Sequence record: MN445185.1
Length of the DNA stretch: 64,000 bases
Origin: Escherichia phage vB_EcoM_EC001
Direction: 5' to 3' (one strand)
Shown one piece after another: positions 4,826 through 58,703 of the stretch (positions are counted from its first letter, which is position 1; each line of letters opens with the position of its first letter). The position numbers and the translations under genes are program-made. The notes below the pieces were generated by a model. It was not told where the DNA came from. It saw only the letters and a list, made by a program, of their open reading frames with translations, and did no database searches.

Positions 4826-4874
4826 AGAAAGCCTCATCTGAATTCTCCCAACTCGACTATAAAAGGTATGCATC

Positions 4875-5825
4875 ATGTACAGACCAAGTAATCCTAGCGC
4901 TATTGAAGGATTAAACCAGGATGGCTTCAGCCTCGCAGAAGCAACCCGCATTCGACCTTTCTTACCTCGCAGATTCTTCCCTTTCGGTTCGTTATACAGA
5001 ACGAATTTCGACGCTTGGGAAGCGATACGTGCTGTAAAAGATGCACTACAGTACAAGAACTTCGAATTCCGATTTGTTTTCAAATGGGGCAACGGCGAAT
5101 TGCTCCACCACTTCGGATTCCAACAGAACGAGTTCATTGAGTATACCTCACCTACGTACCACACCAGGTTCTTAAGTATCGAATTCGTTCGCCATTTCGG
5201 CGATGCACTCTTTACGGAACGGGCTACAGATGAAAACCACGGACGTAGGCTGATGTTAACGAACGGCGCACTGCGCATCAAGATGAATCGTTTACGGGAA
5301 GCGTATAACCAGCTTATCAATCCTGAACCGGTAATGTTTCCAACTGTAGCTGATTTGAACATTACACCGCTCCAGTTACCTGTGGATGTGGATAGACCGA
5401 TTCTGGCAATCCACGCTCTCCAGGCAGGCTATGCAAACTGGTATAAAGAGCACAGTCTCCCGAACACCAGATTGAACATCGCACCGTTTGAGTTATGCCT
5501 GTTCTTAACGTTACGCAAACAACTCGAGCCAGAAAACTTAGACTTGCGTTATCTGGCTAAAACAGATAGCGGTAGTTACTACCCAACGACCTGGATGCTA
5601 GCGGCTGTACTACCCGGCGGTGAAATTATCGGTAACCCTGTCACCGATGTTCAACAGTTACCATCACCGTTAGCACCACCGAAGGATTCAATCTATCCAT
5701 ACGCTTCGTGGTACGCGAGCAGTATTGGCGTGAGATGGTTAATGTTACACGTTCCTGAAGAGGTCTATAATTTATTCCCGCATGAGCAATGGCTCCGTGC
5801 GTATGAAAATCGGTTTGGTTGGTAG
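4875..5825 (+). CDS. hypothetical protein
   Basis: 316-aa ORF between promoter-like motif and terminator. Confidence 0.65.
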   Translation: MYRPSNPSAIEGLNQDGFSLAEATRIRPFLPRRFFPFGSLYRTNFDAWEAIRAVKDALQYKNFEFRFVFKWGNGELLHHFGFQQNEFIEYTSPTYHTRFLSIEFVRHFGDALFTERATDENHGRRLMLTNGALRIKMNRLREAYNQLINPEPVMFPTVADLNITPLQLPVDVDRPILAIHALQAGYANWYKEHSLPNTRLNIAPFELCLFLTLRKQLEPENLDLRYLAKTDSGSYYPTTWMLAAVLPGGEIIGNPVTDVQQLPSPLAPPKDSIYPYASWYASSIGVRWLMLHVPEEVYNLFPHEQWLRAYENRFGW

Positions 5826-45508: not shown

Positions 45509-46861
45509 ATGGGACACTGGCAAAAGCACATAACCTCGTTGGCCGACGCGAAAGCCGTGGCCTCGGAATCCATCGGATTCCAAGATAAAAAGAAACTCGC
45601 CTCTTTGGCGGAAGTGGTACGTAAGTTCCGTGATGCGGGCGACTTCTCGCCAGCGGGTTATCAGAGTTCTGGTATTGCTGCCTGGGTCTTTGACAACAAC
45701 GGTATTACAGTCCTGCCTCGTAACGGGTCCGACTTAGGTGTGGCGGACGTTGTGTTTGCGGGTGTGGAGCCGCCGAAGCTCGACGCGAACAACCCAATCA
45801 TCGCCGACCTGCAACGCAAGATGGTGCAGGGTAACATCGACCTGGATGTCTACAGTAAGTTCTTAAAAGAGAACGAGCTGAACGGCGAGTTCGACGATAA
45901 AAATGCGAAGCTTTCAGGCGAACTCAGCAAGGTGCCGTCCCCACTTTGGCTGACCCCGAAACTACTGACCGGTATCGAGTTAACGGATTTAGAAGTCGCG
46001 GCGATAATTCTGCATGAAGTCGGCCACGTCTATTACTATTTCCGTACCTTGATGCGTACGGTGGTAACGAACCTGATTGCGGATGCTGCAGCGAACCGCA
46101 TGATGCAAACCGAAGACCCGACAGTGCGTTTAAAAGTCGTAAAAGACGTTGAACGTATGCTGAACACCAAAGTGAATCAGCCGGAAACTATCTGCAAAGA
46201 GATGTCTAAAGAGAACATCTACATGCATCTGGTGACAGACATTCTGCTTGAGCGTCCGTTTGTTACCGGTTCGGAAGGGTTCGCTAACCGTACCTGGGAA
46301 CGTGCTGCGGATGACTTCGCAGCTCGCTTTGGTGCAGCCCCGTACCTGGCGTCAGCCTTGTACAAAATCGAAACGTCCCAATTCTATCTCTGCCGGAACG
46401 CGTCGTACATGAACTACGGTGTGCATCTGATGCTGGAAATGCTTAACGTTTCGCTGCTGATTGTGGCTTCGACTAATCCAGTTGGCCTGTTCTTCACGAC
46501 TATCTCGGTGGCGTTCGGTCTGATTGTGAACGACCCACGCAACACCATCTACGATCCGCCGCAGGAACGTTTTGAGACGATGCGTCGTAACTTAGTGGAG
46601 GAGCTGAACACCTTAAAAGGCAGCACCACGAAAGAAGCGAACGAACACCGTAAACGTATTCTGCAGGGCATTGCGTCTATCGACGAATTACTGAAAACCG
46701 TGAAAGACAAAGACAACGTCTTTAGCTTCATCATGAAAACGCTGACCCCTGGCGGTCGCCGTGAGCGTGCTGGGGTGGATTATCAGCGTACGATGGAGCG
46801 CTATCTTTCTAATGACCTGCGTGTGGCTTCTGCGAAGCTTAGTCAGGCGACTTCTTCCTAA
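45509..46861 (+). CDS. putative membrane-associated zinc metallopeptidase (HExxH)
   Basis: 450-aa ORF with IILHEVGHVYYY and hydrophobic segment NVSLLIVASTNPVGLFFTTISVAFGLIV. Confidence 0.5.
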   Translation: MGHWQKHITSLADAKAVASESIGFQDKKKLASLAEVVRKFRDAGDFSPAGYQSSGIAAWVFDNNGITVLPRNGSDLGVADVVFAGVEPPKLDANNPIIADLQRKMVQGNIDLDVYSKFLKENELNGEFDDKNAKLSGELSKVPSPLWLTPKLLTGIELTDLEVAAIILHEVGHVYYYFRTLMRTVVTNLIADAAANRMMQTEDPTVRLKVVKDVERMLNTKVNQPETICKEMSKENIYMHLVTDILLERPFVTGSEGFANRTWERAADDFAARFGAAPYLASALYKIETSQFYLCRNASYMNYGVHLMLEMLNVSLLIVASTNPVGLFFTTISVAFGLIVNDPRNTIYDPPQERFETMRRNLVEELNTLKGSTTKEANEHRKRILQGIASIDELLKTVKDKDNVFSFIMKTLTPGGRRERAGVDYQRTMERYLSNDLRVASAKLSQATSS

Positions 46862-47320: not shown

Positions 47321-49050
47321 GCATGGAAATGACAGGTAACGCCACCCACCCCAAATGGCGTTTGGGGGAGATCGGTGAAGTCCTGCGTTCACGTATGGCC
47401 GAGCGTATTGATTCTGTCAACCAGCTCAATCTGTACATGCAACGCAACGAAGCCGACCTAATCTACGGCTCTCGACTGATTCTGCAAATTGACGCGATTC
47501 TTGACGAAGTGCGTCGCGCAGGTCTGTCGAAAGATGTCGCTGTCGCTGTTGAATCTTCTCGCCCAGGTACAATTCCCGAAGCCGTTCGCAAAATCCTGAC
47601 TTCGAACTATACCCGCACGCACCAGAAAGAGACTATTGTTGCGCTCGAATCCTGGGCAAATGCAGGTAAAGTGGGATTGGTTGTGCTGATCATGACCGCG
47701 ATTATCAAAATCATCGGTTGGATTATCAGCAACGGTAACGGGTTTGCTGGTAATGGCGAATTCGATGGCGAAGGTTACGCTGAGAAAGTCGGCGAAAAAG
47801 CAGAGAGTTTCTCCCAGACCGAAAATACTATCATCGGTCAGCTGAAAATCAGCGCAGTGAAAGATGCATACATCGAAGCCTCTAAGGGTCTGAAAGGTCG
47901 TGACCTGGAAAACCTGAACTTGGCTATCGCGATGGCCGACGAAGTGTTTACGAACATGAACGCGGAAGAGTATCTGAACGACTTGAGCAGCGCGCTGGGT
48001 CGTTCGCCGTTCACTGAGTTGTTCAAAGGTTACACTAAGAAACGTCAGTCAAGCCAGCAGGTTATTCACGATCTGTTAGATACCCTGTTACAACACAACG
48101 TGACGTACGGTATCTACCCGATTGAAGTGGGTAAGAAAGCCTGGCAGGCGTTACCGAAGTCTGCTCGCGAAGCCGGTGTGCGTATTCCGAACCTGTTGAA
48201 CTTCCATCAGATGTCGAATGTTGCCAGCGAACTTATCGGTTACTTTGGCTCGCTCCAGAGTGCCTTTAAAGCGATGATTGACCCAAGCGTCGCCGAAGGT
48301 TTTAAGAATCAGCAAGGTTCAACCACCACGCACAACGGTAAGCAGGTTAACAAAGCAGCACACGACACCGCGCTTATTTTCGGTCAGGCGTTAGCGCAGC
48401 TGAACACCACGATGAACTTCATCATCAGCGACGTTTCCCGCAAAGGATTCGAATACGCCACTGCACCTTTGGTCGTTATCCCAGAAAACAAAGTTCGTGG
48501 TTTAGTGGGTTATGATGATGGTGTGGACTTCGTGCCTGGTAAGGTATTGGTCAACGCACAAGCATCTGCGTTCTTGGGACGCGAGTGCTTAGAGCAAATG
48601 CGCCAGGCAGGCACGTTATCGGTTGGTGACGAACGTGAGTTGCTGGCTGTAGTGGTAACGTTAGGTAAACAAGGCTTTACCAACGACACCGCTGCGACTA
48701 ACCTGAATCGTTACAGTGCGCTGGATAAGGCGGTTAACAACACGATTAAAGTGTTGGAGCAGTTCCAGAAAGCAACCAAGGATAACGTTGAATACGTTAA
48801 CCTGATTAGCGAAGTCATCATGAATGAGCTTAATCAGCCTTCTGGCCTGCGTACCGATGGTCGTGAACTCTCGATGGTGTTATTCTCCCCAGACGGGGAT
48901 GAAGACCTCTTCGTCGGCTTGCGACGTAACCTGTCGTTGGTGCGTCGTTGTTGCAGTGCTGCCGCTACATTGCAGACGATACTGAACCTGGCCAAACGTA
49001 ACCCGTTGGTGAAAGGCAATAATCGCAAAAACATGCTTGACGGCGAATAA
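47317..49050 (+). CDS. hypothetical protein with one predicted transmembrane helix
   Basis: 577-aa ORF; hydrophobic stretch GLVVLIMTAIIKIIGWII. Confidence 0.55.
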   Translation: MSMEMTGNATHPKWRLGEIGEVLRSRMAERIDSVNQLNLYMQRNEADLIYGSRLILQIDAILDEVRRAGLSKDVAVAVESSRPGTIPEAVRKILTSNYTRTHQKETIVALESWANAGKVGLVVLIMTAIIKIIGWIISNGNGFAGNGEFDGEGYAEKVGEKAESFSQTENTIIGQLKISAVKDAYIEASKGLKGRDLENLNLAIAMADEVFTNMNAEEYLNDLSSALGRSPFTELFKGYTKKRQSSQQVIHDLLDTLLQHNVTYGIYPIEVGKKAWQALPKSAREAGVRIPNLLNFHQMSNVASELIGYFGSLQSAFKAMIDPSVAEGFKNQQGSTTTHNGKQVNKAAHDTALIFGQALAQLNTTMNFIISDVSRKGFEYATAPLVVIPENKVRGLVGYDDGVDFVPGKVLVNAQASAFLGRECLEQMRQAGTLSVGDERELLAVVVTLGKQGFTNDTAATNLNRYSALDKAVNNTIKVLEQFQKATKDNVEYVNLISEVIMNELNQPSGLRTDGRELSMVLFSPDGDEDLFVGLRRNLSLVRRCCSAAATLQTILNLAKRNPLVKGNNRKNMLDGE

Positions 49051-53338: not shown

Positions 53339-54457
53339 ATGGCAGAAAAAACATTTGAGACATCGCTCGTCTCCTTTCTTTCTAAGTTTCCCATGCTGCT
53401 TCGCCAGCGGGCGGAATCGACGGAAGAATTCAACTCTGTGCTGTACAACGAGCACACCACGCTGGTTGAACAAAGTCTGTTGGGCTTAGATTACCTGCCA
53501 GGTATTCTGGAGAAAATCCAAATCCTGCTCGCGGGCAACCAACTTACCGCCATCTCAATTCTGGTAGGTGTTCCTGAGGTTGATATCCTTGGTACGCTTG
53601 ACCAGGTTAGCACCCGTCGTAATGCCCTCGATGCGGCTGCACGTTCGGGTTCTCGCTTAGCGTCTTTCGCAATCGGCGAGTCCTCCCGTCACACGCTGCC
53701 GTCATACGATAAAATCGGGCTTGCGGTCGGTGAATCCCGTCGCCAGAAATCCGATAACAAAGTAGCGACTGAATCATCCGCAGGTTCTGTGCTGCCGAAC
53801 AACACGCTGAAGCTCCTGCACGATCAGGAAGGTCTGTCCAACGGTAAAGTGTTCTCTGTTACCTTCGAACGCGACGGTAATAAAGTCGAGCTGCCGATGC
53901 GTCTGCGTCTTGATGTGAAGTCTCTGCCAACCGATGAAATGAAGACGCTGATTGCGTTCAGCGATCAAACCAAAACCTTCTGGGAACGTGTGCTGCGGGC
54001 GAAGGTCGGTTCTCTCAGCTACGCGAAAGATATCGCGCTGTGTAATGACCTCATTGAAGAATACCGTAAGAACCGCTTCCGTGATAAGTCCGGTTATTAC
54101 CGTAAGATGATGGAAAAGAAAAACGCCAACTGGCTGTCTGGCCTGCTGACGCTGAGCCCATCCATCAACAACGCGTCTTCGGTTATGGTGGTTTCTCAAG
54201 AAACTATCGACGATCTGACTGCTCAGCTGGGCGGAGACTTCGATGATTACAATATCCGCCAGCGTGTGTTCAAAGACACCCTGACTGTTTACTACGTGGT
54301 TGTCGACCAGACCTGGAACCGTGTAACCATTTATACGCGTGGTCAGACCGGGTCTCAGGAACTCGACAAATCAGACTTTAGCAAGGCGAAGTCCGGTAGC
54401 GGCGATGTAAACAAAATCATCGATGCCTATCGCGTCGGCGCGAATCCGGTACTGTAA
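53339..54457 (+). CDS. hypothetical protein (host-like codon usage)
   Basis: 372-aa ORF biased to ctg/ccg/cgt codons. Confidence 0.65.
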   Translation: MAEKTFETSLVSFLSKFPMLLRQRAESTEEFNSVLYNEHTTLVEQSLLGLDYLPGILEKIQILLAGNQLTAISILVGVPEVDILGTLDQVSTRRNALDAAARSGSRLASFAIGESSRHTLPSYDKIGLAVGESRRQKSDNKVATESSAGSVLPNNTLKLLHDQEGLSNGKVFSVTFERDGNKVELPMRLRLDVKSLPTDEMKTLIAFSDQTKTFWERVLRAKVGSLSYAKDIALCNDLIEEYRKNRFRDKSGYYRKMMEKKNANWLSGLLTLSPSINNASSVMVVSQETIDDLTAQLGGDFDDYNIRQRVFKDTLTVYYVVVDQTWNRVTIYTRGQTGSQELDKSDFSKAKSGSGDVNKIIDAYRVGANPVL

Positions 54458-55423: not shown

Positions 55424-55981
55424 ATGTTTGACAATGACCAGAATTTTAACCTCGCCGAGAAGTTGATTAAAAACTACATGGCGAAACTGACCCAAAACCC
55501 CGTGCTGGTTCATGACGACGAACTGATACATGAAACCCTGGAAGCTGCAGCCGTTGTGCTGCCGTATTTCCGCATGATGGGCGCTGACTCTGTCCAACAA
55601 GTATTATATGACGAATATCCGCAGGTCGGTTTTACGTTTAATACGTTTTATAACGAATCTGCATCGTTCATACTTGACGGTAAACGCCGTACAGTGTCAA
55701 CAGGACAGTGGTCCGTTCTTCTGGTATCGTACATGAACGATATCCACTCTACTAAGCAAGTAGAGCGAACCGGTTCCCTGGGCTCACGACTTCTTGCTGC
55801 GGCTTACGGTCGTAGTGGGCAAGTTCGCCGTATGGGAACTGCGCATCAGACGTACACGCCTGACCGGCGTCTATTATCTTATGCAGACCACGAACTGCTG
55901 GCACGTTGGTTGACACGTCCGAACGGGTTATCCGATATGATCTCGTCGTTAGCAGTGTTTTTAAAAATCGCACGTCCCTAA
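55424..55981 (+). CDS. hypothetical protein
   Basis: 185-aa ORF with AGGAGAG RBS. Confidence 0.5.
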   Translation: MFDNDQNFNLAEKLIKNYMAKLTQNPVLVHDDELIHETLEAAAVVLPYFRMMGADSVQQVLYDEYPQVGFTFNTFYNESASFILDGKRRTVSTGQWSVLLVSYMNDIHSTKQVERTGSLGSRLLAAAYGRSGQVRRMGTAHQTYTPDRRLLSYADHELLARWLTRPNGLSDMISSLAVFLKIARP

Positions 55982-56037
55982 GGGGGCCCCTTATCTAGGG
56001 GCGTGTAATTGGGTTATAACCAAAGGAACCGAAACAA

Positions 56038-57315
56038 ATGGCAAACTTTGTAAAAAGTAAACTCGCCCGCGAGTCCGTTGAAGCTACCGGCGACGTAATC
56101 GACGGTCTGAGCAACGTTGAACCGGCAGAAGAGAACATCGACGTTCAGCTGGCAGAAGTTGCGTCTATCGACGGTCAGCTGGAACAGCTCGATGGTGACC
56201 AGGAAACCCTGGCTGCTGATACCGAGCGTACCGAAGCTGCTATCGACGCTGCTGACGAAAAAATCGAAAACGGTGAAGAGATGCCTGAAGAAGCCATCGC
56301 TCACACCGAAGTGGCGCAGGAATCTATCCGTAAGCGTTGGGCTATCGATCGTACCAAACTGGCACGCGAATCTTATCGCCGCGGCCGTGGCATGACCAAA
56401 GCAGCTCAGGAAGGCTGGAAAGAAACCCTGAAAGATCTGTTCAAGCGCTTCGTTGAACTGTGTAAAGCAGTTATCGCGAAAGCGAAAGAGCTGAAGCTGA
56501 AATACATCAACGTTGGTAAGTCTGCACAGAAACGTGCGAAAGCTTACCAAGAGATGCTGCGTAAGCTCGGTAAGCAGAAGAAAGAAAACATCTCTGGCGG
56601 CTTTATTAGCAAACTGTCTATCGAAGGCGACTTCGATGTGGCCAACTCCATCGCTATCGCGAAAGAGCTGACCGGCGGTAAAGCGAAAGATGCTATCAAC
56701 AAGCTGTCCTCTCAGGCGGCTGACTCTGCCGTAGCGATCACCAAAACTGCAGAAGGTACTGCAACGGCTGCTAAAGGCGCCGTTGATGTTGCCCTGTTCG
56801 GTACCGCTGCTAAGAAACTGCGCACCCTGCCGCAGTTCGAAGATGGCGAAGGCGGTCAGAAAGTTCTGGCACTGCCAGGCAACGCCTATGTGCAGATCGG
56901 TAGCAAAACTCTGGCCGGCGGCCAGGAGTACACTGCGGTGGCGTTCCTGTCAACTGGCGACTCTACCGACACGAAAGAGATTGCTACCCCGGCAATTACC
57001 GCACTGGCGTCTGCAGCAACCGCTCTTGATGCGATCGGTAAAGGTTTCGAGAAAGTGCTGCAGGACTTCCGCTCCTATGACGCCGAAGTTGAGAAACTGG
57101 AGCAGGCTGCTAGCAAAGCTGCTGCTGCCCTGGATAAATCCAACGACGAAGGCGAGTGGGAAGCACTGCGTAATGCACGTACTGCAGCCGACCAGGCTGT
57201 GCGTAACTACCAGACTCTGAACCGTGCCGTGGCGCATGTTGGTAACACTGTTATCAGCGGCCTGAACGGTTACATCGGTGCTGGTATCGGCGCGTACGAA
57301 AAGTCTAAAGCTTAA
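56038..57315 (+). CDS. abundant paralog A with acidic N-terminal propeptide-like region; possibly virion or internal protein
   Basis: 425-aa ORF, host-like codon usage; first 15 aa identical to 57393..58652; shared VAQESIRKRW and C-terminal GLNGYIGAGIGAYEKSKA. Confidence 0.7.
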   Translation: MANFVKSKLARESVEATGDVIDGLSNVEPAEENIDVQLAEVASIDGQLEQLDGDQETLAADTERTEAAIDAADEKIENGEEMPEEAIAHTEVAQESIRKRWAIDRTKLARESYRRGRGMTKAAQEGWKETLKDLFKRFVELCKAVIAKAKELKLKYINVGKSAQKRAKAYQEMLRKLGKQKKENISGGFISKLSIEGDFDVANSIAIAKELTGGKAKDAINKLSSQAADSAVAITKTAEGTATAAKGAVDVALFGTAAKKLRTLPQFEDGEGGQKVLALPGNAYVQIGSKTLAGGQEYTAVAFLSTGDSTDTKEIATPAITALASAATALDAIGKGFEKVLQDFRSYDAEVEKLEQAASKAAAALDKSNDEGEWEALRNARTAADQAVRNYQTLNRAVAHVGNTVISGLNGYIGAGIGAYEKSKA

Positions 57316-57392
57316 TCCGCTTTACGTACCAAACGTCGGTTGACAAATCATTAATGGCGGTACACGGCGTACCGCCTAGAGGATAGAAAAAG

Positions 57393-58652
57393 ATGGCAAA
57401 CTTTGTAAAAAGTAAACTCGCTCGTGAATCTGTCGAAGGCGCAGGCACTGTCGTTCCAGATGGTATCGAGCTGCCGGCTGAGTCCGTGGAAGGTACTCTG
57501 GCTGACATCGAGCATGACACCAAACCGATCGACCAGCTGGACGCAGAAGCAGACGTGCTGGCAGAAGACGGTGACGAAACTGATGCACAGCTGGATGCAG
57601 TTGATGCTGCTGAAGCTGCCGCTGACGGTGAAGGTGAAGATGGCGAAGAGCCAATGGAAGTGGAAGAAGATATGCCTGACGATGCTGCTGAGCAGCTGGA
57701 CGTTGCGCAGGAATCTATCCGTAAACGTTGGGCATTCGACCACCGCGTAAGCGTTGCGCAGGAATCTTACGGTGCACGTAAGCGTCGTCAGGTTGCTCGT
57801 GAAAGCCTGTGGGAAGATATCAAAGCCTTCCTGAAGCGCATCTACGAGTGGCTGAAAGAGCAGGGCCGTAAAATCAAAGATCGCTGGCTCAAGTTCAGCA
57901 ACCAGGGTAAATCCATTCAGGCGCGTGCTAAGAAATATGACGCTGCGCTGTCTGGCCTGGGCAAGCAGAAGAAAGACACCGTTTCCGGTGGCTTCATCAA
58001 GAACCTGACCTCTAACGGCAAGTTCCTGGGTGACAACCTGCAGGTGCTGAAAGAGCTGCTGGCTAACATCGGTGGCGTTTACAGCATGCAAGAAGACGTC
58101 GTTCGTGAAGCAACTGTAATGGTAACTTCTATTGAGTCTGGCAAACACGTTGGCGGTTTCGCTGCAGCGGTTAATAAAGCAGTTTCTGGTAAGTCCGGCG
58201 ATCTGCAGCTGCTGGGCAACCAGATCGGTAAAGCTGACGTTAAAGTCAACGGTGACGACCTGGAAGCATCCTTCACTGTTATCGATGCAGAAGGCAGCGT
58301 AGAGCAGTCCGTAGCGACTCCTTCTCTGACCACCCTGAGTGGTCTGGTGGCGTTCTTCAATCAGCTGGGTAAAGCTGTGGAAGAAAACGTGAAAGCGTAC
58401 CACAAGAACAACCAGGCGCAAGAGAAGTACGAGCAGGCTATTGACAAGCTGCTGAAGCGTATCGACAGCGTGAAGATCGACGACAACGCCGAGCTGACCA
58501 ACAACGTACGTGTTGCTCGCCGTGCTATCACCATCGCGAACCAGTTCGTTTCCTGGACCGAACGTTGCGTTGCAACTGGCCAGAAAAACCTGATCGCCGG
58601 TGTTAACGGCTACATCAGCGCCGGTATCGGTGCTTATGAAAAGGCTAAGTAA
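57393..58652 (+). CDS. abundant paralog B (tandem duplicate of 56038..57315)
   Basis: 419-aa ORF; same N-terminus, AQE motifs and C-terminal GVNGYISAGIGAYEKAK; followed by terminator. Confidence 0.7.
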   Translation: MANFVKSKLARESVEGAGTVVPDGIELPAESVEGTLADIEHDTKPIDQLDAEADVLAEDGDETDAQLDAVDAAEAAADGEGEDGEEPMEVEEDMPDDAAEQLDVAQESIRKRWAFDHRVSVAQESYGARKRRQVARESLWEDIKAFLKRIYEWLKEQGRKIKDRWLKFSNQGKSIQARAKKYDAALSGLGKQKKDTVSGGFIKNLTSNGKFLGDNLQVLKELLANIGGVYSMQEDVVREATVMVTSIESGKHVGGFAAAVNKAVSGKSGDLQLLGNQIGKADVKVNGDDLEASFTVIDAEGSVEQSVATPSLTTLSGLVAFFNQLGKAVEENVKAYHKNNQAQEKYEQAIDKLLKRIDSVKIDDNAELTNNVRVARRAITIANQFVSWTERCVATGQKNLIAGVNGYISAGIGAYEKAK

Positions 58653-58663
58653 TTAGTCTGGCG

Positions 58664-58703
58664 AATCCCCCACTTCGGTGGGGGATTTACCCTTTCTTTT
58701 TTT
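58664..58703 (+). terminator. intrinsic terminator (aatcccccacttcggtgggggatt plus T-run)
   Basis: Hairpin with TTCG loop then T-run. Confidence 0.6.

Follow-up and report, generated by a model that had tools for sequence, protein, structure and literature searches.

Tandem gp53/gp54-like internal head protein precursors of an SPN3US-like Escherichia phage and their shared N-terminus

Introduction

The plus strand of a 64,000-nucleotide stretch of Escherichia phage vB_EcoM_EC001 (MN445185.1; the whole stretch is referred to here as the window) carries two adjacent genes whose products begin with the same residues. A first-pass annotation had proposed that they encode abundant, paralogous virion internal proteins that are processed by a prohead protease. 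What are these proteins, where would they be cut, and what keeps their N-termini alike?

Results

Two tandem genes encode orthologues of SPN3US gp53 and gp54

Both genes were recovered as open reading frames with the positions and lengths that had been annotated.

56038..57315, + strand: gene 1, gp53-like internal head/ejection protein precursor, 425 aa, 45.3 kDa, PF12699
57393..58652, + strand: gene 2, gp54-like internal head/ejection protein precursor, 419 aa, 45.5 kDa, PF12699

Their proposed paralogy was confirmed by BLASTP, which aligned the two proteins over their full length with 35% identity (E=6e-58). A Pfam scan assigned both to PF12699 (phiKZ_IP, "phiKZ-like phage internal head proteins"), with model positions 2-387 of 387 covered in each case and scores of 260 bits (E=5.3e-77) for gene 1 and 184 bits (E=5.3e-54) for gene 2, the gathering threshold being 27 bits. 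Both proteins also match PHROG 2497, "internal head protein." The gene 1 protein is 96% identical at the amino acid level to gp53 of the Salmonella phage SPN3US and 100% identical to its counterpart in phage JN03, and the gene 2 protein is 87% identical to SPN3US gp54. In RefSeq, the SPN3US orthologues (YP_009153347 and YP_009153348) are labelled "internal head protein"; gp53 and gp54 are the numbers used in the literature.

At the nucleotide level, the two-gene region is 93-95% identical to about two dozen SPN3US-like jumbo phages of Salmonella, Escherichia and Proteus; over the 24 kb around it, identity to SPN3US is 97.7%, and identity to SPN3US-like phages overall is 93-98%. Gene order, lengths (425/419 aa), the N-terminal 15-mer and five cleavage motifs are the same as in SPN3US, and the differences are allelic only, with divergent patches in the mature domains (56900-57200 and 57950-58500). 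The pair lies on the + strand next to the virion structural genes gp45-gp51 of an SPN3US-like genome; as is typical of PF12699, these are tandem paralogues among the head genes of a phiKZ-related jumbo phage. The tandem pair was found in 20 related loci. Hairpins were observed on either side of the pair and between the two genes.

55970..56006, + strand: stem-loop immediately before gene 1 and following the gp52-like gene, without a U-run; fold -25.2 kcal/mol, z=-2.2
57356..57376, + strand: intergenic stem-loop GGCGGTAC-ACGGC-GTACCGCC between genes 1 and 2, without a U-run
58663..58688, + strand: intrinsic-terminator-like hairpin with a U-run after gene 2; z=-3.5, with 0/200 shuffles folding as well

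In SPN3US, gp53 and gp54 constitute "paralog family A" (pfam12699), and each capsid is estimated to contain >600 copies of each protein (Ali et al. 2017, PMC5694885), in line with the abundance that had been proposed for the pair. The proposal of processed virion internal proteins was likewise upheld, by PF12699, by PHROG 2497 and by orthology to gp53/gp54, for which virion mass spectrometry (MS) and in vitro cleavage by the protease gp245 have been published (PMC5694885, PMC7411985, PMC10052503). As a full best explanation, we therefore conclude with high confidence that genes 1 and 2 encode paralogous, very abundant internal head ("ejection") proteins that are orthologues of SPN3US gp53/gp54 and members of PF12699. 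This identification is uncontradicted by any evidence in our analysis.

Acidic propeptides precede basic helical domains

Each precursor of ~45 kDa would be divided into four: a short conserved peptide at the N-terminus is followed by a long acidic segment, then by a short basic linker and finally by a basic helical domain of ~31 kDa.

56038..56073, + strand: gene 1 codons 1-12, putative N-terminal signal peptide MANFVKSKLARE ending at cleavage site ARE-12 (MS-mapped in SPN3US gp53; PMC10052503 Table 2)
56074..56322, + strand: gene 1 residues 13-95, acidic segment with AQE-95 (the VAQE-SIRKRW site) at its end
56323..56412, + strand: gene 1 residues 96-125, basic linker with ARE-111 (family-invariant, predicted site) and maturation site AQE-125
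56413..57312, + strand: gene 1 mature domain, residues 126-425, 31.5 kDa, pI 9.25, predicted helical bundle and small beta subdomain
57393..57428, + strand: gene 2 codons 1-12, same putative N-terminal signal, ending at ARE-12
57429..57803, + strand: gene 2 residues 13-137, acidic segment up to AQE-107 followed by a basic linker that contains AQE-124 and maturation site ARE-137
57804..58649, + strand: gene 2 mature domain, residues 138-419, 30.7 kDa, pI 9.31

The acidic N-terminal regions that had been described for both proteins were evident from their composition, with 27 D/E versus 5 K/R in gene 1 residues 1-95 and 35 D/E versus 4 K/R in gene 2 residues 1-106. The computed pI is 4.1-4.4 for the propeptides and 9.3 for the mature parts. 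Also present in both proteins, as annotated, were VAQESIRKRW (residues 92-101 in gene 1 and 104-113 in gene 2) and the C-terminal block G(L/V)NGYI(G/S)AGIGAYEK. [quoted passage not shown] Searches of PDB sequences with the family profile and with a single protein gave, apart from noise, one weak match to Snf7 (E=0.002), which falls on the acidic coiled region and is probably compositional; these sequence searches did not pick up gp93 and gp162 of phiKZ, whose chains are in 8y6v.

Prohead protease cleavage sites are conserved at four positions

In SPN3US virions, gp53 is cut after ARE-12, AQE-95 and AQE-125, and gp54 is cut after AQE-124 and ARE-137 (PMC10052503 Table 2). The maturation sites are AQE-125 in gp53, giving the mature N-terminus GWKETLK, and ARE-137 in gp54, giving SLWDDIK (PMC10052503). 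All five MS-mapped gp245 motifs were found at the same residue numbers in the window proteins, as in substrates of S80-family proteases, and the residues that follow are GWKETLK after AQE-125 in the gp53-like protein and SLWEDIK after ARE-137 in the gp54-like protein. Conservation of the sites was assessed in a 33-sequence family alignment spanning both paralogue clades, in which they occupy four homologous columns (E12/E12, E95/E107, E111/E124 and E125/E137); ARE-137 of gp54 shares its column with AQE-125 of gp53, and the combined MS data of gp53 and gp54 cover all four columns. The first three columns read (A/G)-x-E followed by Ser in 33/33 sequences, with A-x-E-Ser at residue 12 being invariant in 33/33 homologues. 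At the maturation site, (A/S/G)-x-E was found in the exact column in 28/33 sequences and within three residues of it in 32/33. ARE-111 of gp53, which is invariant in the family and for which no cleavage has been reported, is predicted to be a cleavage site from this alignment. The same layout was observed in a Vibrio phage homologue with 30% identity, which has IATE-9, then AAE, GLE and AVE, each followed by Ser, and C-terminal AGIAGYVAASISAYKAA.

Cleavage in SPN3US depends on gp245. Indeed, the propeptides are left uncut in mutants of the gp245 protease, and the recombinant enzyme cleaves gp53 in vitro (Reilly et al. 2020, PMC7411985). For orthologues that are 87-96% identical to the window proteins, it has thus been shown where in the virion they are, how abundant they are, where they are cut and that cutting depends on the protease. 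Peptides from the gp53 propeptide persist in SPN3US heads (PMC10052503). The first-pass annotation had flagged the conserved VAQE motif as a processing site. This motif corresponds to a real cut, AQE-95 of the orthologue gp53, but the cut is internal to the propeptide; by analogy with SPN3US, the mature N-termini would follow E125 in gene 1 and E137 in gene 2 and not the VAQE site. A tblastn search of the 64-kb window with SPN3US gp245 as the query did not find a prohead protease (best E=3.4); in SPN3US, the gp245 gene is located at 220808-221611 (220.8 kb).

Three other known gp245 substrates, gp45, gp47 and gp50, are encoded inside the window, and their motifs are conserved.

Proposed course of assembly and injection, and alternative roles

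We propose that the precursors would be built into the prohead, where a prohead protease of the S80 family (in SPN3US this is gp245, whose gene lies beyond the window, ~165 kb away) would cut after A-x-E at E12, E95/E107, E111/E124 and the maturation site E125/E137. Cleavage at these sites would turn a 45-kDa precursor with an acidic propeptide into a 31-kDa basic protein, whose C-terminal domain would stay in the DNA-filled head. By analogy with phiKZ gp93/95/97 and Goslar gp58, this domain would later enter the lipid-bounded early infection vesicle by injection along with the genome. Prohead incorporation, gp245-dependent cleavage at multiple sites and retention at very high copy number in the DNA-filled head have been shown for the orthologues. 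The later steps draw on relatives: phiKZ gp93/95/97, which are PF12699 paralogues, are injected and colocalize with the EPI vesicle (bioRxiv 10.1101/2024.03.24.586471), Goslar gp58 is injected (bioRxiv 10.64898/2026.04.21.720040), and gp53/gp54 were named "ejection proteins" in the SPN3US papers by analogy with phiKZ. The mature domains encoded in the window would likewise enter the host. Our literature search found no direct injection data for SPN3US gp53/gp54 and, after 2023, nothing on SPN3US ejection proteins beyond PMC10052503. The role of the mature domain has been called "a key unsolved mystery" (Goslar preprint, bioRxiv 10.64898/2026.04.21.720040).

Like the window proteins, phiKZ gp93, gp95, gp97 and gp162 and Goslar gp53-gp58 belong to PF12699, are encoded by tandem paralogous genes, are abundant in the head and have a helix-rich C-terminal domain. 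They are also cut after x-x-E by an S80 prohead protease (gp175 in phiKZ), with one of the sites at residue ~12-13 (SLE-13 in phiKZ gp93). They differ in that sequence similarity to the window proteins is below detection by tblastn or phmmer, in that phiKZ has 7-8 paralogues at ~100-200 copies against two at >600 copies here, and in that the SPN3US protease motif (A-x-E) is stricter than that of phiKZ. In the phiKZ capsid, residues 14-84 of gp93, which start exactly after the cut between E13 and S14, link hexamers along the inner face of the capsid (PMC11297242). In the same way, the acidic segment (gene 1 residues 13-95) may in part be retained on the inner capsid surface as a capsid cement, a retention of N-terminal fragments that has been shown for phiKZ only.

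An alternative would be that the pair are mainly scaffold or core proteins, which would serve above all to build the prohead and set its size via a T=1 inner shell and whose injection would be incidental. Uncleaved gp53/gp54 do form an ordered T=1 inner shell in the protease-deficient "mottled" capsids of SPN3US (Heymann et al. 2020, PMC7552025), their synthesis follows the same schedule as that of the major capsid protein (PMC7552025), heads that lack gp53/54, as in the gp243 mutant, are unstable (PMC5694885), and N-terminal fragments of phiKZ gp93 and gp162 cement hexamers together (PMC11297242). However, unlike classical scaffolds, the mature domains remain inside the DNA-filled head, with >600 copies of each, and the phiKZ and Goslar homologues are injected. 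We consider a mainly scaffolding function a credible minority view; scaffold and injection roles are mutually compatible.

The charge of the mature domains suggests another role, in which they would be DNA-condensing, histone-like proteins that neutralize or organize the packaged genome and travel with the DNA, analogous to T4 IPI-III. Consistent with this, the mature parts have a pI of ~9.3, in contrast to the acidic propeptides, the head contains these proteins in great abundance, and phiKZ gp93 has been reported to be associated with phage DNA, according to a citation in bioRxiv 10.1101/2024.03.24.586471. We regard such a role as unlikely, albeit worth keeping in mind. The T4 internal proteins IPI/IPII/IPIII and Alt, with their capsid targeting sequence (CTS), do resemble the pair as abundant basic proteins that are packaged via a short conserved N-terminal peptide, which is removed by a prohead protease after glutamate, and that are injected with the DNA (PMC5694885); in the window proteins, a CTS role of residues 1-12 is putative and injection would follow the phiKZ model. 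The T4 propeptide has 10-20 residues, whereas here it has 125-137 residues and is cut in several pieces. No homology to the T4 IPI-III or Alt families was found, the Pfam scan at E<=0.01 giving PF12699 alone, and judging from sequence the T4 internal proteins are a functional analogue only and not homologous.

It has also to be considered whether the mature domains could be membrane-active proteins, similar to pore-forming toxins of the ClyA family, that build or remodel the early infection vesicle. Foldseek matches repeatedly included tripartite alpha-pore-forming toxin components (SmhA/B, MakA/B/E, AhlB and HblL1), the C-terminal block GxNGYIxAGIGAY is rich in small residues, and phiKZ gp93 colocalizes with a lipid vesicle and pulls down membrane proteins (bioRxiv 10.1101/2024.03.24.586471). 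These matches were weak; the Foldseek search against the PDB gave no significant match, and no significant structural similarity to ClyA, Hbl, Smh or Mak components was found. A toxin-like activity is improbable.

The extreme N-terminus evolves in concert between the paralogues

We then return to the processed internal head proteins and their common start. Sequence comparison of the two open reading frames reproduced the annotated identity of the first 15 residues (MANFVKSKLARESVE) and of the first 29 nucleotides, while codons 10-14 all differ between the genes, synonymously only. Within the window, the 29-mer occurs at these two starts only (0 expected by chance), and the N-terminal signal NF-x5-A(R/Q)E was not found in other window proteins, being restricted to these two genes. 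In SPN3US itself, codon 2 differs between gp53 and gp54 (GCA/GCT), and the starts share 5 nt only versus 29 nt here; the 29-nt identity is particular to this strain. At the protein level, Ali et al. 2017 had already described the identical 15-residue N-terminus MANFVKSKLARESVE of gp53/gp54, with its AXE-12 and SXE-15 motifs, and likened it to the T4 capsid targeting sequence (PMC5694885). Residues 1-12 may accordingly be a prohead-targeting signal in the window proteins as well.

Among 89 homologues, we observed a family-wide N-terminal motif, M-(A/S)-N-F-x5-A-(R/Q)-E-S, whose five variable residues (5-9) are lineage specific and yet common to both paralogues of one genome. The "homologues" P0054-P0060 from SPFM phages were rejected as database artefacts with 20-residue blocks in reversed order. 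The pattern was quantified on 14 lineage representatives from 23 IMG/VR loci examined, 20 of which hold both genes. Pairs of gp53 and gp54 from the same genome had 3.64 of the 5 variable residues in common compared to 1.66 for pairs from different genomes, and the same-genome value was reached in 0/100,000 permutations (p<1e-5). Orthologues across different genomes had 1.66-1.78 of the five in common. This effect was specific to the N-terminus, since the rest of the protein showed no meaningful excess (same-genome versus different-genome identity of 0.298 versus 0.290). In the five lineages with 5/5 identity, 37/39 codons before the cleavage site were identical, against a gene-wide baseline of 0.59. 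A clear conversion patch was observed in one genome, L006. Its gp53 gene is the same as in L007-L009, and only the gp54 gene of L006 has a 47-nt patch identical to gp53; the patch begins at the ATG, and the upstream ribosome-binding regions are still of the gp54 type.

In the window pair, 8/8 codons are identical (p~0.015 given a codon identity of 0.59 at identical residues), which as proof of gene conversion is suggestive only, since such identity could also result from selection acting on the region where translation starts. The strong evidence for concerted evolution is the cross-lineage amino acid test together with the comparison of L006 and L007, and not the nucleotide identity in the window. 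It is all but excluded that the matching N-termini have no function and are due to coincidence or to a duplication that happened very recently. The 29 identical nucleotides at the start would fit this reading, but the genes are otherwise only ~35% identical, each of codons 10-14 carries a synonymous difference, the whole family has the N-terminal motif, and the cross-lineage permutation test speaks against it. Indeed, the duplication is old, since both paralogue clades occur across Salmonella, Erwinia and Cronobacter phages.

Thus, concerted evolution of the paralogues across lineages is confined to the first ~9 codons, a modest addition to what has been published. The cross-lineage results resolve the "identical 15 residues" into ~9 residues that are homogenized within genomes and a 6-residue protease site under purifying selection, a separation that is also visible in the synonymous saturation of codons 10-14. 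We tentatively suggest, at just under an even chance, that residues 10-15 (A-R-E-S-x-E) are a family-wide protease site under purifying selection, that residues 2-9 are kept alike within a genome by recurrent short-patch gene conversion or by coevolution with a lineage-specific partner, and that the other ~400 codons evolve independently.

Discussion

The feature analysed here is already known, in that the identity and processing of the SPN3US orthologues have been published. The hypothesis of the first-pass annotation and the MS experiment that it proposed had already been carried out on these orthologues, so the feature is correct but not new. The pair are published, experimentally dissected proteins, and our analysis adds nothing to the knowledge of SPN3US head maturation. 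The reasoning from sequence was correct, and the finding is therefore valuable as a positive control.

Few components of chimallivirus virions are as abundant as the PF12699 proteins, which reach hundreds to thousands of copies, and the interest of the family lies in the function of these proteins. In this respect, the concerted evolution of the N-terminus is a small addition that offers a handle on a possible packaging signal. The SPN3US literature that we searched for the terms "gene conversion" and "concerted" evolution does not mention them. Concerted evolution of the first ~9 codons supports a shared N-terminal signal. If our reading is true, residues 1-12 would be a discrete, exchangeable prohead-targeting signal, the jumbo-phage counterpart of the T4 CTS, and the receptor of this signal (core, gp243, protease or capsid) would covary with it. 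The homogenization of the N-terminus is thus a testable pointer to a packaging signal, which could serve to bring foreign proteins into the heads of jumbo phages, an application for which the T4 CTS has already been employed.

A predicted additional cleavage site in the gp53-like precursor

One further A-x-E motif in the gp53-like precursor (gene 1) is predicted to be a target of gp245, the prohead protease of Salmonella phage SPN3US, which cuts after A-x-E:

56368-56370, plus strand: ARE-111 (gene 1 residue E111), predicted gp245 site

ARE-111|S of the gp53-like protein was invariant in 33/33 family members, and ARE-111 aligned with AQE-124 of gp54, which is known to be cleaved (PMC10052503). 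ARE-111 is nevertheless missing from the list of gp53 sites mapped by mass spectrometry (PMC10052503). We thus regard it as a predicted extra gp245 site, given its invariance and its alignment with a cleaved motif.

Three further published prohead protease substrates, gp45, gp47 and gp50, are encoded in the window (45509-46861, 47329-49050 and 53339-54457, respectively) with >99% amino acid identity to SPN3US. Their motifs were ASE-20 in gp45, AVE-75 and ALE-107 in gp47 and, as the sole early A-x-E in the present gene model of gp50, ATE-145. The gp47 ALE was published at 111 and the gp50 motif as "ATE-127"; both shifts in numbering probably reflect differing start-codon assignments.

Distant and artefactual homologues

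The most distant homologue within tblastn reach (30% identity) was found in Vibrio phage pVp-JHP1101 (L027:2483-3715), whose genome seems to carry only one copy. Both the four-site A-x-E layout and the C-terminal motif of small residues typical of the gp53/gp54 family are retained in this homologue, but it starts with MRKNWIATEE in place of M(A)NF...ARES.

The "hypothetical proteins" from Salmonella phages SPFM5-SPFM20 (P0054-P0060; ENA LR5359xx) consist of gp53 with consecutive 20-residue blocks in reversed order. These blocks correspond to 60-nt sequence lines, and by tblastn the nucleotide entries proved to be scrambled in the same way. The proteins are a database artefact and were rejected as real gp53 variants.

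Composition, hairpins and sequence patches at the tandem locus

The 2-kb bin 56001-58000 has the highest G+C of the window (0.532) and by far its top AT skew (0.171), both because of the Ala/Glu/Lys-rich composition of genes 1 and 2. Three hairpins accompany the genes:

55970-56006: GC-rich stem-loop without U-run, before gene 1
57356-57376: GC-rich stem-loop without U-run, before gene 2
58663-58688: hairpin after gene 2

Only the last resembles a full intrinsic terminator. In related phages this intergenic position is likewise occupied by hairpins, but their sequences differ; the related loci L006 and L007, for instance, have GGGGAAC...GTTCCCC.

At its 5' end, the L006 gp54-like gene contains a 47-nt patch (4849-4895) identical to the adjacent gp53-like gene. 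This identity is absent from the close relatives L007-L009 (counterpart, L007:4855-4901), and the RBS upstream of the patch is unchanged. The patch is a discrete short-patch gene conversion beginning at the ATG.

Nucleotide identity to SPN3US fell to 79-89% at 56900-57200 and to 69-83% at 57950-58500, within the mature-domain coding parts of genes 1 and 2, respectively; the flanks and propeptide-coding parts around both patches were 97-100% identical. The gene 1 protein was 100% identical to that of phage JN03. The pattern resembles allelic mosaicism, with mature domains that vary between very closely related strains.
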